A DNA stretch of 64,000 bases from Nitrospirota bacterium (GTDB taxonomy: Bacteria; Nitrospirota; UBA9217): positions 736,001 through 800,000 of the forward strand of contig CAVTRN010000002.1 in NCBI GenBank assembly GCA_963737155.1. Reading direction: 5' to 3'. A model generated the notes under the pieces. That model saw only the letters and a program-made list of their open reading frames with translations, made no database searches and was not told where the DNA came from. A program made the translations under genes and the position numbers. Below, piece after piece: positions 8,216 to 43,161 of the stretch (the stretch's first letter is position 1; each line of letters begins with the position of its first letter).

Positions 8216-8896
8216 ATGATGAATAAAAAGATTTGGGTTGCATCAGCAATTGTAATCCTGGGCGTATTGTTCTTTTATTTCGACCTGGGAAAATACCTGA
8301 CCTTGGCGTCGCTCAAGGAAAACCGTGCCGCACTCGTTGTATTCTACGAGAGCCACCAGGTTGTCATGGTCTCAGGGTTCATTACCGCCTATATCATTCA
8401 GACAGCCCTGTCTCTGCCGGGCGCGGCCGTGTTCTCGCTCGCGGCAGGGGCCGTGTTCGGCGCTGTCATGGGGACCGTGTATGTCAACATTGGCGCGACA
8501 GTCGGAGCCTCCTTGGCATTTCTTGTCGCCCGGTATCTTTTCCGTGATGTGATCCAGAATAAATTCGGACCCCGACTTGAGAAAATTAACACCGAACTCG
8601 AGACGAGGGGGTTCAACTACCTGCTTTTCTTAAGGTTGGTTCCGGTCTTTCCCTTCTTTCTCATCAACCTTGGCGCGGGCTTGACCAGAATGCCCTTGCG
8701 AACGTTTTTTTTGGGTACCATGGTGGGAATCATTCCGGGCAGTTTCGTATATTGCAACGCCGGAGCCAGCCTGGCCGCAATCAACAGCATGAGAGAGGTC
8801 GCTTCGCCCCGGGTGCTTGGGTCCTTTGCCCTGCTGGGATTATTTGCGATTGTGCCTATACTTTATCAGAAAAGTAGAAAAAAGAAGCAAATATGA
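8216..8896 (+). CDS. TVP38/TMEM64 (DedA/VTT) family membrane protein
   Basis: ALSLPGAAVFSLAAGAVFG and LFLRLVPVFPFFLINL. Confidence 0.9.
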   Translation: MMNKKIWVASAIVILGVLFFYFDLGKYLTLASLKENRAALVVFYESHQVVMVSGFITAYIIQTALSLPGAAVFSLAAGAVFGAVMGTVYVNIGATVGASLAFLVARYLFRDVIQNKFGPRLEKINTELETRGFNYLLFLRLVPVFPFFLINLGAGLTRMPLRTFFLGTMVGIIPGSFVYCNAGASLAAINSMREVASPRVLGSFALLGLFAIVPILYQKSRKKKQI

Positions 8897-9107
8897 AAGA
8901 ACTTCATATTTAATGATAAATTTGAGGAGGAATATTTTGGACTAATGTCCGCGCATTCCCCCTGCTAGTCGCGAAGCGCCAGGAAGAAGGCAAGCGGGCA
9001 GATGTGGATTTTGCCGAGTTTTTCTTTATTGCCTTAGCTGTTCTGAAACAAGCAATAAGTATGTGCGTACCGCAGTCCTTGTTTCGGAGCATCCCTTATA
9101 CCTCTTC

Positions 9108-9159
9108 TTGACACACCGCAGAATGGTGATAGAATTATGAGTATTCATCATTCATAATT
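9108..9159 (+). promoter_or_regulatory. Sigma70 promoter with overlapping inverted-repeat operator upstream of the RiPP precursor
   Basis: TTGACA 9108-9113, 16-nt spacer, TG-n-TAGAAT 9127-9135. Inverted repeat AATTATGA (9133-9140)-N11-TCATAATT (9152-9159). Confidence 0.65.
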
Positions 9160-9268
9160 AAGGCAAATGCAGATGGTTCCGTCCACAGCTTTATTCTGTG
9201 CGTTATGGTCAGGATTCGATTAGTTTTCTCCCTGTGCAAAGCGTGAATAAATGGGAAGGAGGTGAATC

Positions 9269-9541
9269 ATGGAAACCCAGGAGCTGAAAAAGTACCTTGC
9301 GAGATTCAGTATTGCCGGATTGCTTGCCGGTACTGGACTCGTGATAGGATTCGGTACGAGCAATGCCGTGGACAACTCAAATGGGGGGGGTGGCACAGGT
9401 ATTACCACTGAACAAAGTATGACAAAAAGCGGCGGGAGCGAATCAAAAGCTACTCCGACTTCAGAGCCAACCCCGACAGGCGGCTGATCCGGCTCAAAAG
9501 CTGAGCCAACGCCATCTGGTGGCGGAAGCGACAGCAAATAG
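9269..9541 (+). CDS. sbtA: SbtA-like thio(seleno)oxazole ('selenobiotic') RiPP precursor; UGA 9485-9487 probably Sec
   Basis: SD AAGGAGGT. The leader METQELKKYLARFSIAGLLAG matches the selenobiotic precursor pattern. Read-through gives GG-U-SGSKAEPTPSGGGSDSK-TAG (9539-9541). It lies directly upstream of the cognate rSAM. Confidence 0.78.
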
Positions 9542-9684
9542 TGCAGTTTGCACTATCAATGTTCCAGAAAAAATGCCGGCAGGATGAGTTTCCGGCTAAC
9601 ACGCATGGAACAAACATGGAGTTGAGCGGTCCCGGGGGTGCGAAAGAATACGCCGATCGCTCTCGGGATATTGTTTTTAGAACT

Positions 9685-11334
9685 ATGAATCCTTTGACAA
9701 ACGATAGACCTGATGACCGATACCGAGCATGCCGGTCAGTACTGGGCAATGCAGCATGGTCTCGTCTTTCCGCACGGTGTGCCAAGGCGCTTGCTGAAAA
9801 TTCGCTATCGGCTGCTCTTTCGGAGCCCGGCAAGAATAGGTTTCCTGAATTCTTGTCTGAACTTGCCAGCCTCGAGGAAGCCGTCGGCGTAGTCGGACGA
9901 GGGAAGGAATCCCTCCCAAAGGAGATAAGTCAGCCCTTAGTCAACCCAACGATCCAGATCGTGGAATTGTCCTGGAAGAACCTAGTCTCATTCCTCGGTT
10001 CTGATCGGAATATTTCTGTTGTACATCCTATTCGAGCGGATGAATGCGTTCTCCTTTGGTACAATCAGTTCACTGACCGCGTGTCAGCGCGGCCAGTGAA
10101 CGACGAGGATCTCCTGGTGCTCAAAATGGTGGTAGAAGGGATATCGTCCGAGGTCATTGCAGAACAGAACGATCTGCCGGTGGGAGCGGTTGATGCTGCG
10201 CTGTCTCGTGCCGTAGCGATTGGTCTCGTACTCACTCCGCCCTCTCACATCCGGCGAGATCCAAAGCTCTTTTCTCAGAACAATGTCATTCCCGAACGAT
10301 ACCTGTCGTCAACATCGTTCACGCTCCAGTGGCATATCACCCAGACCTGCGACCTGCACTGTAAGCATTGCTATGACCGAAGCAACCGTTCTCAAACGAC
10401 CCTTGATCAGGCTTTGCGGATCATTGAAGACCTGCGTGCATTCTGCAGGAACAAAAACGTTACCGGAGCGATCTCCTTCACAGGAGGCAATCCTCTTCTC
10501 CACCCGTCTTTTACAGAGATATACCGTGCAGCGGCGGAGCGCGGCTTTGCCACAGCTATCCTCGGTAATCCTGCTCCGGCGGAGCGAATCGCCGAGCTGA
10601 TCGCGATCCAGATGCCCGTTTTCTACCAGGTCAGCCTGGAGGGTCTCCGCGAACACAATGATACCATGCGCGGAACAGGACATTTCGACCGTGTTTTGGA
10701 ATTCCTGAAGGTCTTGAAAAGACTCAACGTTTCGTCCATGGTCATGCTTACGCTTACCAGCATGAATATCGACCAGGTCATCCCCCTAGCTAACATCCTG
10801 CGCGGAAAGGCTGATATCTTTCACTTCAACCGTCTCTCCGTGGTCGGTGAAGGCTCGCAACTTAGTCTGCCTGACGCACGCAAGTACAGAACATTTCTCG
10901 AAGCATATCTCAAAGCTGCCAAAACGAATTTAGCCATGGGCATGAAGGAGAATCTCATCAATATCCTCCGTTGGAACCAGGGTGATCCGGCATTTGGCGG
11001 CTGTACAGGCCACGGCTGTGGAGCTGCCTTTAATTTCGTAAGCCTCCTTGCCGATGGTAAGGTTTATGCCTGCCGTAAATTTCCCTCGCTTATCGGCAAC
11101 ATCTATCACCAGAGCCTGACCGAGATCTATGATTCGGATCAAGCGCATCGCTACCGTTCGGGTAGTCAAGCCTGCTGGTGTTGCACCCTTCATCCAGTCT
11201 GCGGCGGATGTCTTGCGAGCGCTCATAGCCACAATCTCGATGTCCTTAAGGATAAAGACCCTTTCTGCTTCATGCGTAACATTGAAAATGAAGCTATGAA
11301 GAGGTGGGTAAGCGGAAACACGGCTGGTGTATAA
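9685..11334 (+). CDS. sbtM: SbtM-like radical SAM/SPASM peptide maturase
   Basis: FTLQWHITQTCDLHCKHCY, FTGGNP, and SPASM cysteines GCTGHGCGAAFNF...YACRKF...CWCC...VCGGC...DPFC, with a long N-terminal extension. Start taken at ATG 9685; the frame is open from 9541. Confidence 0.85.
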   Translation: MNPLTNDRPDDRYRACRSVLGNAAWSRLSARCAKALAENSLSAALSEPGKNRFPEFLSELASLEEAVGVVGRGKESLPKEISQPLVNPTIQIVELSWKNLVSFLGSDRNISVVHPIRADECVLLWYNQFTDRVSARPVNDEDLLVLKMVVEGISSEVIAEQNDLPVGAVDAALSRAVAIGLVLTPPSHIRRDPKLFSQNNVIPERYLSSTSFTLQWHITQTCDLHCKHCYDRSNRSQTTLDQALRIIEDLRAFCRNKNVTGAISFTGGNPLLHPSFTEIYRAAAERGFATAILGNPAPAERIAELIAIQMPVFYQVSLEGLREHNDTMRGTGHFDRVLEFLKVLKRLNVSSMVMLTLTSMNIDQVIPLANILRGKADIFHFNRLSVVGEGSQLSLPDARKYRTFLEAYLKAAKTNLAMGMKENLINILRWNQGDPAFGGCTGHGCGAAFNFVSLLADGKVYACRKFPSLIGNIYHQSLTEIYDSDQAHRYRSGSQACWCCTLHPVCGGCLASAHSHNLDVLKDKDPFCFMRNIENEAMKRWVSGNTAGV

Positions 11335-11393
11335 TGTAATAGTTGACGATGCAAGCATGGCGCGGCTCTTGTGCTTCATTATTCTGAGAGAAT

Positions 11394-11672
11394 ATGCCAA
11401 ACACAACATTTAAGGTCATAGAAGCCTTTAACATCCGGGGACATGGTGTAGTTCTCGTGGGGGACAAGTCATTTTCAGATTTTCTCGAAATCAAGTCATG
11501 CGATATCGAAATCATCACACCGAACGGAGATGTCCTGAAGGGCGTTGCCTTCAAAGAATGGCTCCTTGGTTCGCCGAAAACTCAGCAGGATGAGATTGAA
11601 GCTTTCTTTGTCAGAGGAATGAAAAAAGCTGATATCCCGATAGGTTCTATGGTCAGCGTCAATCAAGAATAG
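11394..11672 (+). CDS. Small hypothetical protein with EF-Tu/SelB domain II-like beta-barrel pattern
   Basis: FKVIEAFNIRGHGVVLVG resembles the F..(I/V).D.F.I.GRG.V..G motif; C-terminal VRGMKKADIPIG resembles LRG....DI..G. Confidence 0.5.
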   Translation: MPNTTFKVIEAFNIRGHGVVLVGDKSFSDFLEIKSCDIEIITPNGDVLKGVAFKEWLLGSPKTQQDEIEAFFVRGMKKADIPIGSMVSVNQE

Positions 11673-11869
11673 GCCAGCCAGCAGCGAGTACATATCTCAT
11701 AGTTGTGCCAAGTCGTTATGCCTATTTTCTTAGAAATTCGCTATAAGTTCAAATTGCCGGAATTGCGTCTTAAAAGGGATAGAGTGCGATATTTGTTCGC
11801 GCGGCATGCTACTGATCAATGGAATGAAGCCTTTATGGTGGGTGGAAAGTACAATTTCAGGGAATTGCT

Positions 11870-17679: not shown

Positions 17680-18486
17680 TTACCGTCTTTCACCACGAAA
17701 TGCGGGACGGTGGAGTCGTCCACCATAGTGCGCTCTATCGCGATTATATCGTCCGAACTCTACGTCACGAAAATGCCGGATTTGTCCAATACGGTACATG
17801 AGTAAAGCTGGTGGTAAATATCTCCTGCCGGCAAACGACCACGGGCCGTTGTAATATGGCCCCCGAAACCAATACCCACCATAGAAGTATAAATATTCAC
17901 TCCCCGTAAAAAAAAGGTCATAAGGAATTCCGACTGCAACATACAAACCGAGTTCAGGCGAATAAACGAACTGCGGTGCTTCGTCAAGATAAAACCCTGG
18001 CGGAGGCGTGACAACATCGGGTTGGGGAGACGCGGCTGCTACGGGGCCATATCCAGGCACCTGATTCCCGTAGGCATACATGCATTGGACATACGCATTG
18101 TCATATCTGCGCTGGGCCGCCCTGCCAGAGACCTGGCCGGCGTTTGAACCGGCTGCCGTCCCAACGAGAAGCCCCCCTACGGCACCAATGAGGGCGCCTT
18201 GTCCAGCATGGCCGGAGGCTGAACCTAAGGCTGCACCCACCCCCGCTCCTACTGCTGTTCCGGCAACTGCTCCTGTGGCAACGTCACTTTCATAGGTCTG
18301 TTCAGGTGACATATTAAGATGTTGCTGCGCCCACTGTCTACACGTCGCATCTTCGGATTGGAATACGTCAAAAGGCTTTCCTGGAGCCGGCAAGACCGTG
18401 ACGCTCGGCCCCGTGGGGACAGTGGCACATCCACCCACGACCAGAAGAGCAAAAGATATCAAGATGCTTTGTTTGAAAGTTAACAT
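17680..18486 (-). CDS. Glycine-zipper lipoprotein (copy 1)
   Basis: Lipobox VGGC, GAVAGTAVGAGVGAALG glycine zipper, RRYDNAYVQCMYA, aromatic C-terminal domain. Confidence 0.82.
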   Translation of the reverse strand: MLTFKQSILISFALLVVGGCATVPTGPSVTVLPAPGKPFDVFQSEDATCRQWAQQHLNMSPEQTYESDVATGAVAGTAVGAGVGAALGSASGHAGQGALIGAVGGLLVGTAAGSNAGQVSGRAAQRRYDNAYVQCMYAYGNQVPGYGPVAAASPQPDVVTPPPGFYLDEAPQFVYSPELGLYVAVGIPYDLFFTGSEYLYFYGGYWFRGPYYNGPWSFAGRRYLPPALLMYRIGQIRHFRDVEFGRYNRDRAHYGGRLHRPAFRGERR

Positions 18487-18492
18487 TAGACT

Positions 18493-18846
18493 TCACTCCT
18501 TTCCCTTTGGCGGACCCGGGGTTGGAACAACCTTAATCCATCCGCTGGGACATTGTTTCACATATGGGTAATAGGCCTTGGATTCCTGACAGTAATACCA
18601 GTAATACTGCTGTTCCTTCACCTGAGGGGCCTGTTGTTCATATATGGGGGATTGTTGCTGTATAACAATGGGCGGCTCCGAGTAATAGTAAGGGGAGTAA
18701 TAATAAGGATAGTAAGGCGCCCCCCACCACGGCCATACCGGTCCTATCCCAATGCCTACCCTCACACCTCCATATGTAGAACCGGGTAAGAAACCCGCAA
18801 GGAGGAATATACTGACGGCCACGAAGATATAAATGCCCTTTTTCAT
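18493..18846 (-). CDS. Secreted Tyr/Pro-rich small protein (copy 1)
   Basis: Signal peptide, YYPYYY tract, YWYYCQESKAYYPYVKQCPSGW. Paralog at 63090. Confidence 0.82.
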   Translation of the reverse strand: MKKGIYIFVAVSIFLLAGFLPGSTYGGVRVGIGIGPVWPWWGAPYYPYYYSPYYYSEPPIVIQQQSPIYEQQAPQVKEQQYYWYYCQESKAYYPYVKQCPSGWIKVVPTPGPPKGKE

Positions 18847-19628
18847 GCTCCACCATCCTTATATCATTGTAGCACACCTATTATAGTGACGGTTTAATGA
18901 AATAATACTTTAGAACCGCCAATCCAATAGTGTATGTCAGATTGCAGGCTCTCAGGCTGGGCTCGTTGCCACAAAACCTCAAACAGAAATATTTGATCAA
19001 GCGTGGAGTAAATATTCAGATTTGGGTTATGCAAAAGGAAGTGCATGCTAATCTCAAGCAGTGCCCGATATCACTTGGAAATGGAAGGTTACGAAGCTAC
19101 CCGACGGAGGAAATTTCAGAAATTCCAGCTCCGATGATCGGGTATCTCGGTTCTTTCCCGCATTTTCTGGGAATCGAGCGGTCGTCCACGTTTGGGACAC
19201 AATGGTACCGCCGATTCATTATGCAGAAGTAGTTATTCATCGACCGATCCCGAGATAAAGGCAACTAGTGTTTCCAGTCCACAAGGCATCTCTCGCAAAT
19301 GTATTTTGGATAATATCGACAAGACTATATACAAGCTTCACGAGATGATTGGTATGCAGGGCAAAAGGCGAAAACTATGTCACAAATAAAAAACATAACG
19401 CTAGAATATTTCGCTTGAGTATTTAGATCATATGACTTGGTTGCTGATCGGACAGGCAGGATCATAAAAAAAGCATAGAGTATTTGTGGATGTTTATCTG
19501 TGCTATTCAGACAAGCTGTTCATGTTTATATTTTAATGAGGAATTGCTTGCTGGTAATATAATACCGGAAATACGCTGTCTGTACTGCGTAATTCGAAGA
19601 AGAGAAGTTGAGGGGATGTTTTTTCTGA

Positions 19629-25500: not shown

Positions 25501-25629
25501 TGTGAGAACAAGATAAATATTCAAAATGGTTTTTGCCTCCTCCTCTGGCTCTTTGCCATCTGTACGATTATCTAGTTCATGCTACGATTCAGCGAGGTGT
25601 GCATTTTTGTACTTGGAGAGGAGAATTTC

Positions 25630-26385
25630 ATGGACTACTATTATAACCATGTGCCGGGCAGATTAAGAATTCAAACGCCATTCATCCACGGTAGCCCGCA
25701 AAATGCAGCCACTTTTGAAAAGAATATACTGGGCCTGGAAGGGATAACGTCGGTCGAAACCAACCCTGTTACCGGCAGCGCATTAATTCTTTTCGATGAA
25801 AAGAAGATCGAATACGGGCAGATCATCAGCTTTCTCGAAAAACAGGGTTACTTTATTCTTTCTAAAGCAAAGACGTTTGATATGGACTACTATTATAACT
25901 ATATGCCGGGCAGATTAAGAATTCAAACGCCATTCATCCACGGTAGCCCGCAAAATGCGACGATTTTTGAAAAGTATATACAGGGCTTGGAAGGGATAAC
26001 GTCGGTTGAAACCAACCCTGTTACCGGCAGCGCACTGATTCTATTCGATGAAAAGAAGATCAAATACGAGCAGATCACAAGCTTTCTCGAAAAACAGGGT
26101 TACTTTATTCTCTCTAAAGCAAAGGCGTCTGATATGGACTACTATTATCACTATGTGCCGGGCAGATTAAGAATTCAAACGCCATTCATCCGCGGTAACC
26201 CGCAAAATGCGGCGATTTTTGAAAAGAATATACAGGGCTTGGAAGGGATAACGTCGGTTGAAACCAACCCTGTTACCGGCAGCGCATTAATTCTTTTCGA
26301 TGAAAAGAGAATCAAATACGAGCAGATCACCAGCTTTCTCGAAAAACAGGGTTATTTTATTCTGTCTAAGGCTAAGACGTCTGAT
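25630..26385 (+). repeat. 3 x 252-bp near-identical tandem repeat
   Basis: ATGGACTACTATTAT units start at 25630, 25882 and 26134. Confidence 0.92.
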
Positions 26386-26475
26386 GAAGTTATCGAGCAG
26401 GCAGCGGAAAAGGTGCTTGATGTGGCAGAGAAGATAGTAGTCGACTCGGTTGATGGTGGGATTGAAGATGTTTGA
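25630..26475 (+). CDS. Protein of three tandem HMA2-type domains
   Basis: SD GGAGAGGAG. 3 x MDYYY..(V/M)PGRLRIQTP...VETNPVTGSALILFDE, then an acidic tail. Confidence 0.85.
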   Translation: MDYYYNHVPGRLRIQTPFIHGSPQNAATFEKNILGLEGITSVETNPVTGSALILFDEKKIEYGQIISFLEKQGYFILSKAKTFDMDYYYNYMPGRLRIQTPFIHGSPQNATIFEKYIQGLEGITSVETNPVTGSALILFDEKKIKYEQITSFLEKQGYFILSKAKASDMDYYYHYVPGRLRIQTPFIRGNPQNAAIFEKNIQGLEGITSVETNPVTGSALILFDEKRIKYEQITSFLEKQGYFILSKAKTSDEVIEQAAEKVLDVAEKIVVDSVDGGIEDV

Positions 26476-26648
26476 TGTAGCTGTGCTTCCACGCAAATGA
26501 CGCCAAATAATAGATTTATGGAGTGTAATTAGTCGCCCCTTCTACAATATCTACTATTAAGGTCCTCATAGTGTCCTGACGGCGTAGATAGTTAGAATTA
26601 TTTTGTAATAAAAAAATTATATTTTATTCCTCTGAAAGGAGTTCGTGC

Positions 26649-32096: not shown

Positions 32097-32879
32097 TCAT
32101 TCCTGGAGTGTGAAGGCGGACAGAATTTCCACCAGCGAGTCCACGGCCTTTCCCAGGTTTTTCGAAGCCCTTGCGGCGTTTCTCCCGAGTTTTATGCTTA
32201 CCGGGATAAGCGTCGGCTTTGAGAGAAGGAGGCCGAAAGCCTGTGAAAAACGGTAATGGCCCGTCTTGTCCGTTACGGCGATAAGTTCCGGAGGAATATC
32301 TTCATCCAGCCGATCGGTGATCGAGCGTAACGCGAGAAAGGGCACGCGATTCTGATGCGAGAGCTTTGCGAAATAAAATGTTTCCATGTCGCATACGGGG
32401 AAGGGGAGGTCGCCGGGGATCATCTTTTTGATTTTTGATTTTGTCATCATTTCCGAGAGGGTAACAATGCCTCCCTCCCTTGCGGCGATCCTTTCATTGA
32501 GCTTGTCCCCAATTTGTCTGCCGAGGGCGGAATCGGGGACGACGTCTTCCGGGAGATGTTCTCGCTCCCGCGTTCTGTCTCCCCTGATGAGGAAGGAGCG
32601 GGAAGACCACACAATATCCCCGATACCGGCGTTTTCGTACAGGGCGCCGCCGAAACCGGCGGATAAAACAATGTCGGGGCGGCGCTCCTGGAGCACGTGC
32701 CGGAATGCGGTTTCCGCGTTCGCAGCGCCTATGCCGGTTTGTACTGCGATGACGTCACACGGGGGATGCAGCTCCCTCTCCAAGGGGAAAGGACGGTTCA
32801 CCGGATTTTGTGCTGATGGACGGTTTTTACGTATGTGCTTTAATTCCTGCGGAAAGGCCGCAAAAAGTGCCATGATCAT
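32097..32879 (-). CDS. Nucleoside phosphorylase family, hopanoid-associated HpnG-like
   Basis: QTGIG, SAGFGGAL, CDMET, LRSITD; adjacent to hpn genes. Confidence 0.75.
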   Translation of the reverse strand: MIMALFAAFPQELKHIRKNRPSAQNPVNRPFPLERELHPPCDVIAVQTGIGAANAETAFRHVLQERRPDIVLSAGFGGALYENAGIGDIVWSSRSFLIRGDRTREREHLPEDVVPDSALGRQIGDKLNERIAAREGGIVTLSEMMTKSKIKKMIPGDLPFPVCDMETFYFAKLSHQNRVPFLALRSITDRLDEDIPPELIAVTDKTGHYRFSQAFGLLLSKPTLIPVSIKLGRNAARASKNLGKAVDSLVEILSAFTLQE

Positions 32880-32927
32880 TTTGAGAAGGTGTTCTGCCTT
32901 TCTTTGAGGATCGACAGCGTGGCCTGA

Positions 32928-33495
32928 TTATATCCCTTCCTGCTCGGGAAAGTATTTCTTCCTCAACTTGTTTTGATGGCCCTGTTCGACGAATGTGTCG
33001 GAGGTCCCGTCTCGCTTGCGGTGTACGGCTTCTATTTCGCGATCAAGGAAAAGTTCAAGTAGGGCGCTGCCGAAGCCCTGGGCAAGAACATTCTCTTTAA
33101 CGGGACGAGCTTCATGCCGCTGACGCGACGAACGGATCAGCCTCGCGTCCGGCGGTTTAACGAACCGTGCATTGACGGCCGCTGCGTCGATGCCTTTCGC
33201 TTCTGGCAACGTCGCTGCCGACAGGACCGGGAGCACGGTATGGCCCAGCGCCATCAACGCAACGTCGCCGCAACTTCTCGGGAGCTCGGCCTCTCCGATG
33301 TGAAGGGACCGGGCGAACTCCCGTTCTCCGAGGGGCGTCCGGGCAGCCTTATCACTTTTTCTCTCGGATACCGGATGTCGGCAGATCCGCTGTGTTTCAG
33401 CGCCAAGCCGAGCATGGCAGACCAATTCAATGTTGTCCTTCGAGGCCTTGACCACGAGGTTCGGAATATGTCTGAGATAGGAAGGGTCCTGTATA
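32928..33495 (-). pseudogene. dxs: Truncated, degenerate 1-deoxy-D-xylulose-5-phosphate synthase (C-terminal part only)
   Basis: SYLRHIPNLVVKASKD, GDVALMALG, VNARFVKPPD, ENVLAQGFGSALLE, DTFVEQG. The N-terminal TPP-binding domain is absent. Confidence 0.7.
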
Positions 33496-33722
33496 CGTGA
33501 AGCCGATTTCGCGTGGAGAGGGTTTTTTCTCCTCTTTTTGTAGTATAGTCTTTGTCGTATAGTCCTAGTATAGCAGGGAAAATGGCGACGGCAAGTTATT
33601 TTAGGAGCGGGGACTTGAGCGAGGACTTGATTTCTGATATCATAGACCTCACGTGAGCGCGAAAGGCTGAACGGTTAAGTACACTCCCAATTGACGTCCC
33701 GCGGCGCGGGACGAGAAGCGAC

Positions 33723-34874
33723 ATGATCATCTCGATACCGGCAATTCTTATTCTACTTATCCTTTGTGCGGGAGCCTATCATCTTTTCTCTCTCTATTGC
33801 GTATGGGAATTTTTCCGGGAGGAAATAAGCGAGCCGGCGCTTCGGCCTCACATCCCCGTATCAATCATCAAACCGCTCAAGGGAATCGAACCCGGATTCG
33901 GGGAAAACCTCAGGACTTTTTGCGAGCAGGACTATCCCGAATTTGAGGTCCTGCTGGGATTTTCCGATCCGGCCGACGACGCCATCCCGCGGGTCAATGG
34001 GACGGTTGATACCCTAATGGATTGCAATGTCCGTACGGTCATCGGCGCGGGTCGCCCGGCTGTGAACCGGAAGGTGTCGAATCTTGGAGGGCTGGCGGAA
34101 TCAGCCCGGCACCCCATCCTCGCTATCAGCGACAGCGACATGAGAGTGGACCGAGCCTACCTCGGGCGAAGCATGGAGGAATACTTCAGCGCCCGAAACG
34201 TCGGCCTGGTCACGTCTCTGTACAAGATCTCAAACCCCGAATCGATCGGCGCCGCGCTGGAGTCCCTAACGATCGCGCTCGATTTTATTCCGTCCGTTCT
34301 TGTCGCCCGTCGACTGGAGGGCATTACGTTCGGATTAGGGGCATCTTTGGTGCTCTCGAAGAAGGCGTTGGAGGAGATCGGCGGCTTTGCCGCGATCGGC
34401 GACTACCTTGCAGACGATTACCAGCTCGGCAACCGGCTTTGGAAGCGGGGGTATTTGATCGTCCTTTCCCGGTATGTCATCGAGAACGTTGTGGGTCCCA
34501 TGAGCATTGCTGATTACTACAGGCATCAGCTCCGGTGGGCGCGGACCTACCGGTCATCAAGGCCCAAGGGTTTTGCCGGTTATGGCATTACGCACATGGT
34601 TCCCTTTTGCCTGCTTCTCCTCATTGCGGCAGGTCCGAACGCCCTCTCGCTGTCTGTACTTGGATCTGCCGTCATGGTGCGGTACGGCCTTGCATATGTC
34701 CTGTACAGAAAGGTAATTCACTCACGGCAGTGGCTGAAATGGATTGTGCTCGTGCCTGTAAAAGACGTCCTAGGCTTCGGTATCTGGGCCTGGAGTTTCA
34801 CGAGCCGGAAAGTCCGCTGGCGGGGCAACGAGTATCGTATCTTGAAAGACGGAAAGCTCCGGCAGACGGAGTAG
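33723..34874 (+). CDS. hpnI: Bacteriohopanetetrol glucosamine biosynthesis glycosyltransferase
   Basis: VSIIKPLKG, NRKVSNL, ISDSD, LADDYQLG, HQLRWART. Confidence 0.88.
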   Translation: MIISIPAILILLILCAGAYHLFSLYCVWEFFREEISEPALRPHIPVSIIKPLKGIEPGFGENLRTFCEQDYPEFEVLLGFSDPADDAIPRVNGTVDTLMDCNVRTVIGAGRPAVNRKVSNLGGLAESARHPILAISDSDMRVDRAYLGRSMEEYFSARNVGLVTSLYKISNPESIGAALESLTIALDFIPSVLVARRLEGITFGLGASLVLSKKALEEIGGFAAIGDYLADDYQLGNRLWKRGYLIVLSRYVIENVVGPMSIADYYRHQLRWARTYRSSRPKGFAGYGITHMVPFCLLLLIAAGPNALSLSVLGSAVMVRYGLAYVLYRKVIHSRQWLKWIVLVPVKDVLGFGIWAWSFTSRKVRWRGNEYRILKDGKLRQTE

Positions 34875-34938
34875 CCGCAGGTTAGGCTTTAAAGTGGGGC
34901 TGCCGCTAAAACCACACCTCCATTCCAGCACATAAACT

Positions 34939-36171
34939 ATGCTATCTTCGTTCCCGTTGTTTTTGCTGACAATGTCCTTGTGCTTGTTTGCTTGCACCAC
35001 CATGGTGCAAAAGCTCCCATACCCTCTGATCAACTTGGACGAGCAGGTAAAAGTGGTCACCGTGCCAGTCCCGGTCATTGCTGCCAACCCCAACGAAGGA
35101 CTCTACCGTGGCGCCATGGTTGCATTTCTTATCCACAACAAGAATGACGAAGTCAGCATGCTGCTGGCCCCGCAGGTGAATTTCAATCAGAACTTCGGTG
35201 TCTCCACTTCCCTTTTCGGCGCCTACTACCCGTCACCCGCCCAGAGCTTGGTATTCAATATCTCCAAGTCCACTTACGTGGACGATGACTACGAGTTTAG
35301 TTACGTTGACCGGTCGCTTTTCGGCGGCAAGGCAGAGGTCCGCTCCTTTTTCGACATATTTACTGATGGCTCTGCGCGTTTCTTTGGCTTCGGACCTAAC
35401 AGCCTGCAGTCGAACCAGACGAATTTCGGTGACAGGGAGTCGGGCATCACCCTATCGCTGGCTTACAGGATCGCGAAAAATCTCCAGTTGGTCGTGGGAG
35501 ACCGTTTCAGACGTGTAGATATTGAACAGGGAGCAGTGCAGTCGGTTCCCTTCATCGGCGATAAGTTCTTCGGGGCTGAGGTGCCTGGCATTGATGGCTT
35601 CTCCGTTCACGCGCAAAAGCTCGGTCTTGTTTACAGCACCCTCGACTTCCCCGACTTGCCGACTGTCGGGCTATACGCCGAGACGTCGGTCGAAGACAGC
35701 GCGAAGGACTTCGGCAGCAGCGCGAGCTTCGTTCATTACCATGCCGAGGTAAAGGGATATGTGCCGTCCGAGAGCGCACGCTGGATCAGTGTTCTCCGGG
35801 TCGCCTACAACCAGACTCCCGGCAACGATGTTCCCTTCCTTGAGCGAAGCATCCTTGGAGGGGAGACCACTTTGCGCGGGTATGGTCGCAACCGTTTTAT
35901 AGATTCCACGTCCCTGCTTCTCAACCTGGAAGAGCGAATCAGTGTCTTTCGCTGGAATGTATTCAACGTTAGGGCAGACTGGGAAGTGGCGCCGTTCGTT
36001 GATTACGGCGGAGTTATGAGAACGCTCGGAACTTTGCAGCGCGAAGATTTCAAAATCAATCCCGGCATTGGTTTCCGCGCCGTGGTTCGTCCTAATATTG
36101 TCGGTAGGTTGGATGTTGGCTTTGGTGATGAGGGGGCGGCTGTATTTGTCGGCCTCGCCTATCCATTCTAG
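34939..36171 (+). CDS. BamA/TamA (Omp85)-like outer-membrane beta-barrel protein
   Basis: LGGETTLRGYGRNRF, APFVDYG, GIGFR, terminal AYPF; possible lipobox LFAC. Confidence 0.8.
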   Translation: MLSSFPLFLLTMSLCLFACTTMVQKLPYPLINLDEQVKVVTVPVPVIAANPNEGLYRGAMVAFLIHNKNDEVSMLLAPQVNFNQNFGVSTSLFGAYYPSPAQSLVFNISKSTYVDDDYEFSYVDRSLFGGKAEVRSFFDIFTDGSARFFGFGPNSLQSNQTNFGDRESGITLSLAYRIAKNLQLVVGDRFRRVDIEQGAVQSVPFIGDKFFGAEVPGIDGFSVHAQKLGLVYSTLDFPDLPTVGLYAETSVEDSAKDFGSSASFVHYHAEVKGYVPSESARWISVLRVAYNQTPGNDVPFLERSILGGETTLRGYGRNRFIDSTSLLLNLEERISVFRWNVFNVRADWEVAPFVDYGGVMRTLGTLQREDFKINPGIGFRAVVRPNIVGRLDVGFGDEGAAVFVGLAYPF

Positions 36172-36496
36172 AAACCACTATTTTCTCGCGGAGCAAGGGA
36201 CACAGATCTTTCTAATACGGCAGTTGATGCGATGGTTTCTTATTAAATCAATAAGATGCTTTATATTCTTTTAAATCTGTTAGGTGAGGAATTAATTGCA
36301 ATTGCCGTAGTTTTTATAAATTTGATATATTATTATTAACTAAAGAATTAAGTATCATAATTGTCCACAACTGCTAAGAGTTCTGGCCAAAGTAACAATA
36401 CTTTAGTTATATTGATATTTGAGATGAACTGCGCTATCGTTTCTTTAAATATCGACGGGTGAATGGTTTAAGTGAGCGGAAAATCAAGAAAGTTGA

Positions 36497-36525
36497 TTGA
36501 CAATTTCTTTCTTTTTTACTAGAAT
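36497..36525 (+). promoter_or_regulatory. Sigma70 promoter upstream of hpnJ
   Basis: TTGACA (36497-36502)-N17-TAGAAT (36520-36525). Confidence 0.7.
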
Positions 36526-36662
36526 GCCACTCGAAAAGGGCATCGTTCGCATCTTACGAAGAAACAGGAAGCATAGAGGGGAACGGACATCTTAACACCC
36601 CGTGATCTATCCAAGCGATGGAGCATAGAGGTGGAGGAGCGTTCGGATGACATTGATTACTG

Positions 36663-36716
36663 TGAGGAGGATCTGAAGGGTGATTTTCTGCTTCAGTCGC
36701 TTCTCCTCATTTTTTT
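36663..36716 (+). terminator. Terminator-like hairpin inside the hpnJ leader
   Basis: TGAGGAG..CTGAAG pairs with CTTCAG..CTCCTCA and is followed by T7. Confidence 0.55.
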
Positions 36717-36791
36717 CTTATTTCTGGATTCCTGCCGGGGCACAGTAACGGTCTGCTCAGGTCGGGCTTCATAAAGCTGGGGGAAATAAAA

Positions 36792-38216
36792 GTGAGGACA
36801 CTGCTTCTCAACCCGCCATCATACGAGGGGATAGACGGTGGGGCCGGATCACGATATCAGGCGCGGCGTGAAATCCGCTCCTTCTGGTATCCCACCTGGT
36901 TGGCGTATGCTGCCGGACTTATTCCGGAAAGCCGTCTCGTTGATGCTCCTGCCGACAGTCTAAGCGCGGATGACGTAATCCGTCTCGCGAAGGGATACGA
37001 CTTGATTGTCATGAGCACCAGCACCCCGACTATTGCTCATGATATCGGTCTTGCTGGGGCGCTGAAGGAACACTATCCCCATGTTATGATCGGACTTGTT
37101 GGCCCTCACCCCATGGTTCTACCTATGGAAACAATGGCGATGTCGGAAGCCCTCGATTTCGTCACCACGGGAGAGTATGATTATACTCTGGCCGAAATCG
37201 CCGATGGAGTCCCGCTTAATCGCGTCAGGGGAATTGTCTATCGCTCAAATGGTAGTATGGTACGTACGCAGGACAGATCGATAATCGAAGATCTCGACGC
37301 GCTTCCCTTTGTAAGCGGGATCTACGCGCGGGACCTCACGATCGAGAATTATTACAATGGCTACTTACTCCATCCGTACGTTTCTCTCTATACCGGACGC
37401 GGGTGTCGTTCGCGGTGCACGTATTGCCTGTGGCCCCAGACGATCTCTGGGCACGTCTACCGGGCGAGAAGCGTGGACAACGTGTATGAAGAAATGGTTC
37501 TTGCCGGCCGACTGTTCCCGCAGGTGAAGGAGTTTTTCTTTGACGATGATACTTTGACCCAGGATATAGCGAGAGCCGAAAAGCTCGCCCGCAGAATAAA
37601 ACCGCTGGGGATGACATGGTCGTGCAACGCACGAGCGAACGTCAAAAAGGAAACACTCAAGGTGATGAAAGATAGCGGTTTGCGTTTGCTGACGGTGGGG
37701 TTTGAATCGGGTAACCAGAAAATACTCGACAATATGAAAAAGGGGATACATCCCGCCCAAGCCCGGGAATTTATGAAGGCGACAAAAGAACTGGGCATAC
37801 TCGTCCATGGTGCATTTATTCTGGGGTTGCCGGGCGAAACGAAAGAAACCATTGAAGAGACCGTTAGGTATGCACTGGAGCTCGACCCCTATAGTATCCA
37901 AGTCTCTCTTGTCGCCCCCTATCCTGGGACCGAGATGTATGCGCAGGGAATAAAAGAGGGTTGGATCGTGCGAGCAGGCGAAGATCTGTTGAAAAATGGG
38001 ATCCAGAACGCTGCCGTCTCCTATGATGGACTTTCCCGGGAATATATTTTTGAGGCGGTGGAGCGTTTCTACCGCCGCTTCTACCTCAGACCTCGTCCGA
38101 TCCTGAGAATCGTGAAGGAAATGCTACATGACAGGCATCTATTTGTCCGCCGCGTGAGAGAAGGGACAGAGTTTTTCTCGTTCATGGCAAAGCGGAAAGA
38201 GGTGGTCCAGTCGTAA
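36792..38216 (+). CDS. hpnJ: Hopanoid biosynthesis-associated radical SAM protein
   Basis: DGGAGSRYQARREIRSFWYPTWLA, GRGCRSRCTYCLWPQT, QVSLVAPYPGT. Confidence 0.92.
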   Translation: MRTLLLNPPSYEGIDGGAGSRYQARREIRSFWYPTWLAYAAGLIPESRLVDAPADSLSADDVIRLAKGYDLIVMSTSTPTIAHDIGLAGALKEHYPHVMIGLVGPHPMVLPMETMAMSEALDFVTTGEYDYTLAEIADGVPLNRVRGIVYRSNGSMVRTQDRSIIEDLDALPFVSGIYARDLTIENYYNGYLLHPYVSLYTGRGCRSRCTYCLWPQTISGHVYRARSVDNVYEEMVLAGRLFPQVKEFFFDDDTLTQDIARAEKLARRIKPLGMTWSCNARANVKKETLKVMKDSGLRLLTVGFESGNQKILDNMKKGIHPAQAREFMKATKELGILVHGAFILGLPGETKETIEETVRYALELDPYSIQVSLVAPYPGTEMYAQGIKEGWIVRAGEDLLKNGIQNAAVSYDGLSREYIFEAVERFYRRFYLRPRPILRIVKEMLHDRHLFVRRVREGTEFFSFMAKRKEVVQS

Positions 38217-39091
38217 TGGTGCTCGATCGCAAAAAATACGCGGTTATCGTTGCCGATGATTTCGGTAGTTCCTCTTCGGTGAATCTAGCCGTTGCCGAAG
38301 CATATGACAGGGGAATACTCTCTGCAGCAAGCCTAATGGCAGGAGGGGCTGCTTTCGAGGAGGCCGTAGAGATAGCCGGGAAGCGAAGGGGCCTCTCCGT
38401 CGGACTCCATGTGACCCTCTGCGACGGAAGGGCGGTACTGCCCTGTTCCGAAGTCCCCGGCCTCGTTGATTCGCGCGGCAGTTTCGAAATAAGCGCTTCA
38501 AGTGCCTGGATGAAATACCGCCATGTCAGTCTTTTGGGCCAGCTAGACCGTGAGATCGAAGCGCAGTTTAACCGGCTGGAAAAGGCAGGTGTCCGTCCAA
38601 CGCACATAGACGGCCACCACCACCTCCACATGCATCCCGCAATATTCGAAAAGCTTTGCGGGCACGCATCACGGCGGGGGATTCGATGGGTCCGGATACC
38701 TCGTGAGCCCCTGTCCCTCCTCCTCCGTTTTCCCTTATCGGGGCGCGGCGCCATGCCTTTCATCGAATGGGCGGTTTTTGCGGTCCTCGGGAGAATGCAT
38801 GTAAAGAAGGCGCGCGAGTACGGACTGCGCTCGCTCGAAGTAGTATACGGGTTGGCGCGGACCGGGCAGTGCGACGAGCGTTACTTGAAGCACATTTTTG
38901 GCCGGGCCGGCGGCTCTCTGGAAATTTTCATGCACCCCGACACCGCGACAGCGGCAGGGCGGCGAGAATTAGAAGCGCTGACCTCCGCCGCGACGCGCGC
39001 CGCACTTGGTGCATGCGGCGCTGTCCTTGCGGGATACCGAGAACTTTCCGCGGAAGCGGCGGTTCCGGACGGCGCGATGGAGATTGTATGA
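38216..39091 (+). CDS. hpnK: Hopanoid-associated YdjC-family deacetylase
   Basis: VADDFG, VGLHVTL, THIDGHHHLHMHP, EIFMHP; overlaps the hpnJ stop. Confidence 0.85.
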   Translation: MVLDRKKYAVIVADDFGSSSSVNLAVAEAYDRGILSAASLMAGGAAFEEAVEIAGKRRGLSVGLHVTLCDGRAVLPCSEVPGLVDSRGSFEISASSAWMKYRHVSLLGQLDREIEAQFNRLEKAGVRPTHIDGHHHLHMHPAIFEKLCGHASRRGIRWVRIPREPLSLLLRFPLSGRGAMPFIEWAVFAVLGRMHVKKAREYGLRSLEVVYGLARTGQCDERYLKHIFGRAGGSLEIFMHPDTATAAGRRELEALTSAATRAALGACGAVLAGYRELSAEAAVPDGAMEIV

Positions 39092-39615
39092 AAACGTATA
39101 TAGTCGTTACGATAGCCGCATTTTCCGCGGCAATTGGCGAAACCCTCCTGAGCTTCGGGATGAAGAGATTCGGATCGATGGACCTTGCGGATCCGTCCCA
39201 ATGGCTTGTACTCGTTTTTTCCGTGGTCCGAAATCACTACGTATTTCTGGGCGTTGTATTTCTGAGCATTTTCTTTTTTCTTTATCTCGCCGCTCTCTCA
39301 TGGGCGGACCTCAGTTTCGTCCTCCCGCTGACTGCGGTATCGTACCTTTTCGCTGCGCTGCTGGCAAAGTTTTTCCTCAAGGAAGAGGTCTCATGGTATC
39401 GCTGGACCGGCACGATAGTCATTGTGATCGGCATCGCCATAGTAGCGTTCGGCGGAAAATCAAGGTCAGTTGTCCGTATACCGGACCTCCTTACGACGGT
39501 TTCATCGGGGATCACGGGAGGGCAGACGGAAGCAGACCGTCAATCCCGTCGTTTTTTCACGCAAGGACCGTCCAACCTCGATAGGATTGCCGTGCGGGAA
39601 GAGGGGAAGCAATGA
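39088..39615 (+). CDS. EamA/DMT family small transporter
   Basis: ALSWADLSFVLPLTA, FLKEEVSWYRWTG; ATGA overlap with the hpnK stop. Confidence 0.82.
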   Translation: MKTYIVVTIAAFSAAIGETLLSFGMKRFGSMDLADPSQWLVLVFSVVRNHYVFLGVVFLSIFFFLYLAALSWADLSFVLPLTAVSYLFAALLAKFFLKEEVSWYRWTGTIVIVIGIAIVAFGGKSRSVVRIPDLLTTVSSGITGGQTEADRQSRRFFTQGPSNLDRIAVREEGKQ

Positions 39616-41639
39616 AGAGGCTATTCATCAACGAAAAAGAAAAAAACCCGGATTACCAGGGTGACTCCGGGGATGTGGCCGGCATCCTGTCGGGAATACG
39701 GGAAAACGACCCCCGTGCTTTCCTGGGACATTCGTCATCTGCAACACCGGTTTCAGAAGCCATCGGGAAAACGTTGTCCTATTACCTTGACCAGCAGCAC
39801 CCGGATGGATACTGGTGGTATGAGCTGGAATCCAACGTTACTATGGCATCGGAATACCTAATGCTTCTTCATTTCCTGGGGTTGCGGGACGAAGAACGGG
39901 ACAGAAAGATCGTTCATAACATTCTTCGAAATCAGAGGGCGGACGGGACATGGGCGCTGTTCTACGGGGGAAGAGGCGACCTTAGCACCACCATTGAGGC
40001 ATATTGCGCCCTCAAACTCGCGGGTTTTACCGCCGATGATGAGCCGCTGAAGAAGGCTGCAAAATTCATCCTCCAGGAGGGAGGGATCGAGGCAGCGAGA
40101 GTATTCACCAAAACATATCTCGCCCTTTTCGGCCTTTACGACTGGCGGGCTATCCCTTCCATTCCCGTAGAGCTCAATATATTTCCTGTATGGTTTCCTC
40201 TGAACATCTACAACTTCTCGAGCTGGGCGCGGTCTACATTCGTGCCTCTGGCAATGATCTGCGCGTTCAAGCCCGTGAGGACATTGCACCCTGCCATAAC
40301 ACTCCGGGAGTTGTACCGGACACCGGACAGGGTGCCGCCGATAACGTCCGCCAAGCTGCCGAGCTTTTCGTTCAAGAAGATATTTATCGCCTTTGACAAG
40401 CTCGTCAAGGTGTACGAGCGCCTGCCGGTCAGACCTTTCAGAAAGATGGCCCTTAAGAAGACTGAACAATGGATCCTCGACCACCAGGAGCCGACCGGAG
40501 ACTGGGGGGGCATACAGCCCGCCATGATCAACTCAATCCTCGCCCTAAGTGCGATGGGATATCCGAACTCCTCGGAGCCGGTACGAAAAGGGCTTGAAGC
40601 GCTGAAGAGATTTACCATCGAAAACGATCATGAGATCGTTCTTCAATCATGCATCTCCCCGGTATGGGATACCGCGCTCACATCTCTTGCGATGCTCTAC
40701 GCGGGAATGGACATATACCATCCTTCCCTGAAAAAGGCATGTGCCTGGCTGGCGTCGAAACAGATTTTGCAGCGGGGCGACTGGAGCGTTAAAAGGCCCT
40801 TACTCGAACCTGGAGGCTGGGCTTTTGAGTTCGAGAACAGCTGGTACCCTGATTTAGACGATTCCGCCGTCGTTCTTTTCCTCCTCAACAAGTGCGCGGA
40901 TGAGAATACTGTCAAACAGGAGAACCTCTCCCGGGGCCTGCGCTGGGTCGTGGGGATGCAGGGGAAAGATGGCGGGTGGGGCTCATTTGACGTGGACAAT
41001 AACATGAAGAGCTTGAACCAGCTTCTCTTCGGGGACTTGCAGGCCATGATAGACCCCAGCACTCCCGATGTAACGGCGAGAGTCCTCGAGTTTCTCGGTT
41101 CGATTGGATACGATCTCTCGAACGACGTGGTCATGCGTGCGAAAGCGTTCCTCATGCGGACACAGGAAAAAGAAGGCTCTTGGTGGGGGCGGTGGGGCGT
41201 CAATCACCTTTATGGAACAAGTATTGTGCTGGCAGGGTTGAAGGCGGTAGGAGAAGACATGTCCAGTCTGCACGTCCGGAGAGCGGTGCACTGGCTAAAA
41301 TCGAAGCAGAACGCCGACGGAGGATGGGGCGAGAGCTGTGAATCCTACTGTAAATGTCCCTCAAATGCCTGCACGGAGCGCAGCACGACCTCGCAGACCG
41401 CTTGGGCAATCTTGGCTCTGATTACTGCGGGCGAAGCAGGCGGCAGGGAAGTCATGAACGGGGTGACGTACCTTCTCAAGAGACAAAAAGCCGACGGTAC
41501 GTGGGACGAGAAAGAGTTTACAGGCACCGGGTTTCCTCAGTACTTCTATCTCCGGTATCATAATTACCGGAATTGCTTTCCTCTGATGGCTCTGGGCAAG
41601 TACCTGTCTGCCCTCGGGAACGGGGCGCCCGGGCAATGA
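39612..41639 (+). CDS. shc: Squalene-hopene cyclase
   Basis: YPDLDDSAVV catalytic DxDD, QW repeats (QHPDGYW, QNADGGW), CISPVWDT, FTGTGFP. Confidence 0.96.
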   Translation: MKRLFINEKEKNPDYQGDSGDVAGILSGIRENDPRAFLGHSSSATPVSEAIGKTLSYYLDQQHPDGYWWYELESNVTMASEYLMLLHFLGLRDEERDRKIVHNILRNQRADGTWALFYGGRGDLSTTIEAYCALKLAGFTADDEPLKKAAKFILQEGGIEAARVFTKTYLALFGLYDWRAIPSIPVELNIFPVWFPLNIYNFSSWARSTFVPLAMICAFKPVRTLHPAITLRELYRTPDRVPPITSAKLPSFSFKKIFIAFDKLVKVYERLPVRPFRKMALKKTEQWILDHQEPTGDWGGIQPAMINSILALSAMGYPNSSEPVRKGLEALKRFTIENDHEIVLQSCISPVWDTALTSLAMLYAGMDIYHPSLKKACAWLASKQILQRGDWSVKRPLLEPGGWAFEFENSWYPDLDDSAVVLFLLNKCADENTVKQENLSRGLRWVVGMQGKDGGWGSFDVDNNMKSLNQLLFGDLQAMIDPSTPDVTARVLEFLGSIGYDLSNDVVMRAKAFLMRTQEKEGSWWGRWGVNHLYGTSIVLAGLKAVGEDMSSLHVRRAVHWLKSKQNADGGWGESCESYCKCPSNACTERSTTSQTAWAILALITAGEAGGREVMNGVTYLLKRQKADGTWDEKEFTGTGFPQYFYLRYHNYRNCFPLMALGKYLSALGNGAPGQ

Positions 41640-42625: not shown

Positions 42626-42757
42626 AGAAGAGTTGTCTTGACGGCTTCAAGAAAAAACCCGGATGCGTATACGGAAAACAGGAAAGACAGAAAACTCGGC
42701 AACGAGAGGATAGATTAGAACGGCGACTCCGACCCGCACCGCAGGAAGGAAAAATCA

Positions 42758-43152
42758 ATGAGAACCTTTTCACCTTCCTCTTTCTGGCACGGGCATTCTT
42801 ATCAATATTCATCGTCCTGCTGTTTCTCAGATGGTTCCTGGCTAAACCCGCATTCCAGCAGTTGAGCCCAGTGTTTGAGATTTGCGTGGGATGGGTGATT
42901 ATCGGGTTCAAGACATGCTTTGCGATCACCTCGATTTTTGAGGGTGTGCTGCTGACATTTAAAAAGTCCTTGTTTCCCTATGGTTGGATTGAAAGGATTG
43001 TTGTCTTGCTGTTTCTGCACACGATCCGGCTCGGAATAGATTTTGGCACCAACAAGAACAGAATAAGCAATTTCTTCATCAAGATGCATAATTTCGTCAC
43101 CATGAGCGCCCGTGAGCAGAGAGCTTCCGGGGCGGTGCCGTTTCATATTTGA
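42758..43152 (+). pseudogene. Unknown multi-TM membrane protein, apparently frameshifted just after the start
   Basis: SD AGGAAGG plus ATG 42758. One extra T in the T4 run (42767-42770) joins it to a hydrophobic frame that is open to TGA 43152. Confidence 0.5.
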
Positions 43153-43161
43153 GAGGTTTCC

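Follow-up and report, generated by a model that had tools for sequence, protein, structure and literature searches.

A probable selenocysteine codon in the single-site sbtA gene of an SbtA/SbtM cassette from a Nitrospirota bacterium

We analysed a stretch of 64,000 nucleotides (nt) from a Nitrospirota bacterium (assembly GCA_963737155.1, contig CAVTRN010000002.1, positions 736,001 to 800,000 of the forward strand), hereafter called the window. It carries two adjacent genes on the same strand: sbtA, encoding a small precursor peptide, and directly downstream sbtM, encoding a radical S-adenosylmethionine (SAM)/SPASM maturase. The coordinates of both genes and of the features around them are collected in Table 1. 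The sbtA frame is interrupted by an in-frame TGA at 9485. The explanation that we judge probable is that the two genes form an sbtA-sbtM cassette of a Nitrospirota-type bacterium in which UGA 9485 is decoded as selenocysteine (Sec, U), SbtM makes a seleno-ring on the peptide, and the peptide is then exported.

Profile matches show that both genes are members of the SbtA/SbtM family. The leader of SbtA (residues 1–26) matched positions 1–26 of the 27 of TIGR04081 with 36.9 bits (37.5 bits for the 72-amino-acid (aa) form; cut-off 30.5 bits). SbtM matched TIGR04082 ("thio(seleno)oxazole modification radical SAM maturase SbtM") over positions 2–516 of 516 with 695.3 bits (cut-off 350 bits) and fell well short of the cut-offs of all other SPASM families, among which the ACGX system came next (163.6 vs 400 bits). 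Both a Radical_SAM and a SPASM domain were found in SbtM by Pfam. No Pfam match was obtained with the read-through SbtA peptide; PF27804 is precomputed in the database for SbtA homologues, and database annotations of relatives already read "selenobiotic family peptide" and "SbtM". An earlier first-pass annotation, made by a model from the sequence alone, had placed an SbtA precursor beside a radical SAM/SPASM maturase and called for a profile test, which supports the pairing. Its terms "SbtA-like" and "atypical" were too cautious, since the leader passes the curated SbtA model: as judged by these profiles, the two genes are a genuine SbtA/SbtM pair and an ordinary representative of the known family.

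The maturase is intact. Across 29 aligned SbtM proteins, that of the window included, the cysteines of the radical SAM motif CxxxCxxC and of the SPASM auxiliary clusters do not vary (C270, C274, C277, C488, C493, C511, C545, C548, C554, C557 and C576, in the numbering of the long ORF). The longest open reading frame (ORF) starts at GTG 9541 and overlaps the sbtA stop; this start was rejected, the frame 5′ of the conserved MNPL... differing among loci. Given these differing frames and the length of the homologues, mostly 520–556 aa, ATG 9685 is most likely the start of sbtM.

SbtM relatives were collected by scanning one genome per species, which gave 578 confirmed stretches; the best 80 loci were kept (L001–L080). 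Six-frame translations of the 80 loci, with TGA read as U, were searched with a profile built from nine precursor homologues. We obtained 81 leader-bearing ORFs from 72 loci and the window, of which six (L037, L079, L022, L039, L036 and L048) were excluded from the family counts as over-long read-through, truncated or masked, leaving 75 peptides. A leader-bearing ORF adjoins sbtM in 72 of the 80 related loci. None of the 13 flanking ORFs of the window recurs beside sbtM in more than 4 of these 80, and sbtA-sbtM is therefore a two-gene cassette. The 578 stretches are widespread in Nitrospirota and in Desulfobacterota/Syntrophales, with single metagenome-assembled genomes labelled Chloroflexota, Planctomycetota, Acidobacteria and Gammaproteobacteria, a wider host range than the "Geobacter and Desulfbacteria" named in the account of PMC9204691.

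From ATG 9269 the sbtA ORF runs for 72 codons to TGA 9485–9487, and the same frame continues to TAG 9539–9541, giving 90 residues with the TGA as residue 73. In the read-through frame three units can be recognized, KSGGSESK, TGGUSGSK and SGGGSDSK, whose central codons are GGC-GGG-AGC (9431–9439), GGC-TGA-TCC (9482–9490) and GGC-GGA-AGC (9521–9529), respectively. No cysteine occurs in the 72-aa part, and Gly72-Sec73 would be the sole Gly-Cys/Sec pair of the peptide. The database entry for this gene (P0122) is a protein of 72 aa; it and its close relatives are deposited as proteins of 69–74 residues ending at the Sec codon. On all these points (coordinates, the short ORF and its continuation to the TAG, the three units, the alignment of the TGA with Gly codons, the lack of a thiol without read-through, and truncation by gene callers) the first-pass annotation is borne out. 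For annotation this matters in that a gene cut at the Sec codon would lose the only residue on which the maturase can act.

The TGA position is occupied by Sec or Cys in most relatives. In a subclade alignment of 15 sequences, eight (the window, L001, L003, the two copies in L004, L005, L007 and L008) were read at the DNA level. In column 74, which holds the TGA and is termed site 2 below, U is found in four of them (window, L001, L007 and L008), Cys in three (L003 and both L004 copies) and neither in one (L005). Seven database homologues (P0123–P0125 and P0127–P0130, 53–88% identity) end exactly before this column. The first-pass annotation had named Gly or a true stop in homologues as the outcome that would speak against it; with four U and three Cys among eight sequences, its reading was not refuted.

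The sequence 3′ of the TGA behaves as expected of translated sequence. The first codon after the TGA is TCC in the window and AGC in L001, Ser in both. Between the same two genes there are, further on, two synonymous and three non-synonymous codon differences and a 9-nt in-frame indel, and both frames end at the same TAG. Identity between window and L001 is 84.3% after the TGA as compared to 81.9% in the undoubted coding part.

Among the 75 SbtA peptides, 61 carry U only, 7 both U and Cys, and 7 Cys only, and all sites fall in the context [S/G][S/G](U/C)[S/G]G; this pattern has the form of a classic Cys/Sec alternation. The core context of the window site, G-G-U-S-G, fits it. Across the family the residues following U are SG in 76 cases, GG in 45 and TG in 10, so that the Sec-Ser context, to which the word "atypical" had also been applied, is in fact the commonest (76 U-S-G vs 45 U-G-G). 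That word does hold for the number of sites: the window peptide alone (1 of 75) has a single Cys/Sec site, while the other 74 have at least two. The Pro/Thr spacers, also presented earlier as a peculiarity, are common to the whole Nitrospirota subclade of the window SbtA. The real peculiarities are thus the single remaining site and the absence of a local selenocysteine insertion sequence (SECIS) element of the model type, described below. Taken together, these comparisons make the Sec reading of TGA 9485 well supported; the actual insertion of Sec at codon 73, and the RNA element directing it, we infer from sequence.

Three further positions of the alignment point to the history of the peptide. 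At site 0 (column 37) the window has Ser where L003–L008 have U or Cys. At site 1 (column 57), Gly56 in the window, U is found in L003, L005, L007 and L008, Cys in L001, both L004 copies and P0128–P0130, and G, R or L in P0123–P0127. At site 3 (column 90), where the Gly86 codon of the window is one base from TGA, L003 and L007 have U, L004 copy 1 has Cys and L001 has Gly. The ancestor of the window SbtA would accordingly have carried four Cys/Sec sites, three of which decayed here, with Ser now at site 0 and Gly at sites 1 and 3.

In L004 (4717–5670) there are two tandem sbtA genes, one all-Cys with a terminal hairpin, the other with a single U at site 0 and without the hairpin. The arrangement in L002 (1062–1370), with the last unit (…SGSUSGSK) and its hairpin out of frame with the remainder of the gene, suggests either a frameshift or an error of assembly. 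The peptide motif GGTGVTT, present in the window and in L001 and L003–L008, is itself encoded by a hairpin, GGUGGUAC...GUUACCAC (9386–9409 in the window). Relatives carry this hairpin after their site-0 Sec codon; the window has Ser at site 0 and a decayed form of the hairpin (−1.6 kcal/mol, as compared to −5 to −7 in the relatives).

Use of Sec by this organism is shown by another gene of the window, as far as sequence can tell. An ORF at 666–1604 (TGA 1602–1604) matches TIGR04167 ("arsenosugar biosynthesis radical SAM (seleno)protein ArsS") and ends five profile positions short. When its TGA is read as U, the match extends from profile positions 6–298 to 6–303 of 303, and its score increases from 398.2 to 407.2 bits; the read-through frame ends at 1622 with the C-terminus ...GQGSSUVGAVA. 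A hairpin at 1621–1638 (7 bp, loop GGUC, spacing 23 nt) meets every constraint of the SECIS model given below. The ArsS gene (666–1622) is thus, on its sequence, a selenoprotein gene cut short by the gene call.

These data also bear on the idea that selenium plays no part in the translation of UGA 9485, the codon being read by near-cognate read-through (Trp, Cys or Arg) or UGA generally encoding an amino acid in this organism. The alignment of the TGA with Gly codons of both sister units could hint at a UGA=Gly code. However, TGA is the stop of 11 of the 35 window ORFs, including the full-length squalene-hopene cyclase (shc) and HpnH (hpnH) genes, and a general UGA reassignment was rejected on this ground. 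Moreover, column 74 alternates with Cys, not with Gly or Trp, and the ArsS TGA stands at the known Sec/Cys position of its family and is followed by a canonical SECIS. We therefore regard decoding without selenium as highly improbable. Two other in-frame TGA candidates, at 25576–26529 and 17680–18858, were set aside as being without a selenoprotein signature.

The bacterial SECIS model used here (PMC13188914) describes a loop of 3–9 nt with a G in the first two loop positions, an upper stem of 4–16 bp, a UGA-to-loop spacing of 16–37 nt and a free energy of −7.5 kcal/mol or lower; according to the same source, some genuine selenoprotein genes fall outside it. Our test is our own implementation of this published model and may miss irregular local elements. 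Across the sbtA family the signal is strong: 126 of the 175 in-frame UGA sites pass the model, as compared to 7 of the 55 Cys sites. Loop positions concentrate between +20 and +25 relative to the U, the loop sequences being AGGUG, AGGUA, GGUC, GUU or GGU. Of the 49 UGA sites that fail, 37 are followed by a later UGA in the same gene (37 of the 107 such non-last sites), and many Nitrospirota-type sbtA genes (for example in L006, L009, L010, L011, L015, L016, L025, L029 and L030) have a model hairpin at the last UGA only.

Several observations weigh against Sec at codon 73. No hairpin within 16–37 nt of UGA 9485 meets the SECIS model, and the L001 orthologue fails likewise. The two hairpins that had been noted 3′ of the TGA, at 9491–9507 and 9510–9524, are present as stated. 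With a spacing of 9 nt the first is nearer to the UGA than the model allows, and its A-rich loop lacks a G among its first two nucleotides; the second is acceptably spaced (27–28 nt), but its loop does not start with a G either and its free energy is above −7.5 kcal/mol, and its counterpart in L001 is 9 nt further from the TGA. Near hairpins like the first one accompany 25 of the 49 failing U sites, 52 of the 126 passing U sites and 30 of the 55 Cys sites. A second type of SECIS represented by this hairpin was rejected on these counts, and a SECIS function for the two hairpins is not sustained. The coding-type evidence after the TGA comes from one close pair (window and L001) together with the more distant L003, L004 and L007. 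Since three of the four ancestral sites have decayed, the gene could be heading for loss. A scan of 48 ORFs of the 64-kb window revealed no SelA, SelB or SelD, and a tRNA scan of the same window gave no tRNA gene, hence no selC there. Finally, the export and metal-binding parts of the proposal draw on sequence features and analogy only.

On these grounds the TGA might be taken as a real stop. The gene would then be a decaying SbtA without Cys/Sec sites, its 72-residue product could not be modified, and SbtM would be idle or would serve a precursor elsewhere in the genome. The missing model SECIS, the degeneracy of the three other ancestral sites and the position of the window as the only single-site peptide of 75 would all agree with this, and the presence of two sbtA genes in L004, L016, L025, L029, L030 and L074 makes a second substrate elsewhere possible. 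Nevertheless, column 74 is U or Cys in seven of the eight sequences read at the DNA level. In the 51 nt 3′ of the TGA the frame is kept, Ser is preserved through TCC/AGC, the indel is in frame, and divergence does not exceed that of the coding part upstream. SbtM retains all invariant residues, and one SbtA-like leader only is found in the 64-kb window. The SECIS failure itself is a weak argument against Sec, because 49 of the 175 family UGA sites also fail and 37 of these are internal, needing read-through for the later sites of the same peptide. A real stop at 9485 seems to us improbable.

The RNA around the codon is structured beyond the two hairpins discussed above. The segment 9470–9560 folds better than its shuffles (z = −2.56, 2 of 200 shuffles being as good) and includes a third hairpin, at 9538–9556, which overlaps the sbtA stop and does not figure in the first-pass annotation. 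This terminal hairpin meets the SECIS model relative to the Gly codon GGA 9524 (spacing 19), but lies 58 nt from TGA 9485. In L003, L007 and L008 it stands 11 nt after a terminal Sec codon and passes the model. Searches of Rfam over the whole window gave no family at gathering score; in 9200–9700, with E values up to 10, the sole match was a weak one to Mahella-1 (19.7 vs 70.7 bits), taken as noise.

The terminal hairpin may be explained by recent losses of the adjacent sites, by another role, or by service to upstream UGAs from a distance. In the last case UGA 9485 would still be read as Sec, with the hairpin at 9538–9556 acting from 58 nt as a working SECIS rather than remaining as a relic of site 3, and the same would apply to relatives that have a canonical element at the last UGA only. 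Apart from distance, the hairpin does satisfy the model. Its stem is invariant in seven of seven clade sequences, including four without an adjacent UGA (window, L001, L005 and L004 copy 1), and the hairpin is 100% identical between window and L001, whose sbtA genes are about 82–84% identical. A stop-codon hairpin of this type is found in 54 of the 57 genes with U in the last 8 residues, in 7 of the 11 with U only upstream and in 2 of the 7 without U. The sbtA copy at 2655 in L029 has Glu at its terminal site and retains the hairpin, and two upstream UGAs have no local element; as judged from its sequence, this locus repeats the hairpin situation of the window independently. The failure of 37 of 107 non-last U sites points in the same direction.

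Action from a distance on multiple codons is known for the SECIS of eukaryotic selenoprotein P; to our knowledge it is not known for bacteria, nor is a bacterial case of SECIS action at about 60–100 nt. The all-Cys L004 copy 1 retains the hairpin as well, and this speaks for a recent conversion or another role, for example in mRNA stability or processing, and our home-made SECIS test may have overlooked irregular local elements at the UGAs concerned. In addition, the published distance of the loop from the UGA is 16–37 nt in the model as given in PMC13188914. A distant SECIS is therefore, in our opinion, unlikely, although less so than a real stop. If the terminal hairpin does serve distant codons, this would change the rule that the bacterial SECIS sits right after the UGA.

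Returning to the reading of UGA 9485 as Sec with modification by SbtM and export, the following scheme can be proposed. The sbtA gene would give a 90-residue precursor with a signal-peptide-like leader (about residues 1–33) and a core rich in Gly, Ser, Thr and Pro, in which UGA 9485 would be decoded to yield ...T-G-G-U-S-G-S-K.... In the cytoplasm, SbtM would oxidise Gly72-Sec73 twice, at the expense of two SAM and with removal of four hydrogens, and a 5-selenooxazole would close, as observed in vitro for the Geobacter enzyme. This ring chemistry is attributed to the window SbtM by analogy. The biochemistry of Geobacter SbtM is due to Lewis et al. 2021, as described in PMC9204691 and PMC11002830. 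In the account of PMC9204691, hydrogen is abstracted from the Cys/Sec beta-carbon, Gly-Cys(Sec) loses 4 Da to form a thio(seleno)oxazole, and the product still reacts with iodoacetamide; its absorbance near 304–313 nm is known for the Geobacter enzyme only.

The modified peptide would probably be exported and its leader removed, leaving a flexible periplasmic peptide of about 57 residues with one selenol-bearing heterocycle. SbtA leaders of the window and of the related loci resemble export signals, with a basic start, a hydrophobic stretch and then a lipobox-like Cys or an A-x-A-type site. The lipobox-like Cys occurs at the leader end in at least 41 of the 75 peptides, and the window has an A-x-A-type site there instead. 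A role of the mature peptide in binding a soft metal or in redox chemistry is plausible, by analogy with copper-binding 5-thiooxazole peptides. As no Cys is left in SbtA, a shortage of selenium would, if the Sec reading is right, yield an unmodifiable 72-residue fragment and leave SbtM without substrate, in agreement with the first-pass annotation. The window SbtA may thus represent a naturally minimal substrate, with one Gly-Sec and no Cys, which could simplify work on seleno-oxazoles.

Compared with the Geobacter SbtA/SbtM pair (TIGR04081/TIGR04082), the window pair has the same genes in the same order, passes both models, has Gly before Sec and shares an in-frame UGA at which gene callers truncate the protein. 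It differs in having one Sec site, where the source PMC9204691 gives "at least two"; in the table of PMC13188914, a selenoproteome review of 2026, TIGR04081 is entered with 2 Sec and the motif SGUG. The Sec context is GGUS here and is quoted as GGUG or SGUG there, and the host is Nitrospirota-type rather than Geobacter or Desulfobacteria. In contrast to known SbtA, the window gene has no canonical SECIS directly after the UGA, and its product has Pro/Thr-rich spacers and an A-x-A-type leader end in place of the lipobox Cys.

A second comparison is with captophorins and bufferins, 5-thiooxazole peptides made by MNIO (DUF692) enzymes. They contain the same type of heterocycle, of which a seleno analogue would be formed here, and short Cys units repeated in a small precursor; their ultraviolet maximum near 302–305 nm is also noted for the SbtM product in these sources (PMC12668002, PMC12538549). 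Their ring, however, is the product of an unrelated enzyme family, non-haem iron MNIO acting together with a partner protein, and is formed from Cys only, while SbtM is a radical SAM/SPASM enzyme that uses selenium. The 5-thiooxazole peptides of MNIO enzymes bind copper according to PMC12668002; metal binding is a property of theirs and, for SbtA products, an analogy. With anSME and other SPASM peptide maturases the window SbtM shares the radical SAM and SPASM architecture. Hydrogen abstraction from the Cys beta-carbon is common to anSME and SbtM in the comparison made by PMC9204691, but anSME ends at formylglycine whereas SbtM proceeds to ring closure and a second oxidation.

Table 1. Features of the sbtA-sbtM locus (positions in the window)
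Feature	Position	Strand	Basis or remark
Sigma-70-like promoter candidate for the sbtA-sbtM unit (TTGACA, 16 nt, TAGAAT, TG before the second hexamer)	9108..9135	+	consensus match only
Shine-Dalgarno sequence AAGGAGGTG, strong, ending 4 nt 5′ of ATG 9269	9256..9264	+	sequence; kept in L001
sbtA precursor gene, putative read-through form (90 codons + TAG, Sec at codon 73)	9269..9541	+	leader matches TIGR04081
Leader, residues 1–33, signal-peptide shape: K7, K8, R12, hydrophobic F13–F28 (16 residues), S-N-A before V34	9269..9367	+	hidden Markov model match over residues 1–26; putative cleavage site
Degenerate site 1, Gly56 (GGG)	9434..9436	+	column 57, U or Cys in relatives
In-frame TGA, read as Sec 73, motif G-G-U-S-G-S-K	9485..9487	+	U/Cys column; coding-type sequence downstream
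Hairpin 1, 6 bp, loop AAAGC, 3 nt after the TGA	9491..9507	+	−8.1 kcal/mol
Hairpin 2, 5–6 bp, loop UCUGG or CUG	9510..9524	+	−5.6 to −6.7 kcal/mol
Degenerate site 3, Gly86 (GGA), one base from TGA	9524..9526	+	column 90
Terminal hairpin, 8 bp, loop GUU, overlapping the stop TAG	9538..9556	+	SECIS type of the terminal Sec sites of relatives
Conserved hairpin in the sbtA-sbtM spacer, about 16 nt 5′ of the sbtM start	9629..9669	+	12 predicted pairs in 7 clade sequences
sbtM, radical SAM/SPASM maturase, 549 aa from ATG 9685	9685..11334	+	TIGR04082 match
CxxxCxxC radical SAM cluster motif (C270, C274, C277, long-ORF numbering)	10348..10371	+	invariant columns, 29 SbtM proteins
Terminator-like hairpin with T-rich tail, 3′ of sbtM	11359..11375	+	consensus match only

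The promoter candidate upstream of sbtA has 11 of 12 matches and is the sole such site in 8850–11700 (shuffle mean 3.0). In the spacer hairpin between the two genes, 2 of the 12 pairs are changed on both sides; no Rfam family matches it.

Elsewhere in the window, a gene at 25579–26475 encodes a protein of three near-identical units of about 84 residues, each of which matches heavy-metal-associated (CopZ-type) domains over their C-terminal two-thirds only. Cys is absent from the units, and with it the usual CxxC motif, and the gene ends at a TGA followed by 18 in-frame codons starting U-C-S-C. A hopanoid cluster occupies 32097–44163 and comprises an HpnG-like phosphorylase, HpnI, an Omp85-family protein, HpnJ, HpnK, the squalene-hopene cyclase, HpnA and HpnH.

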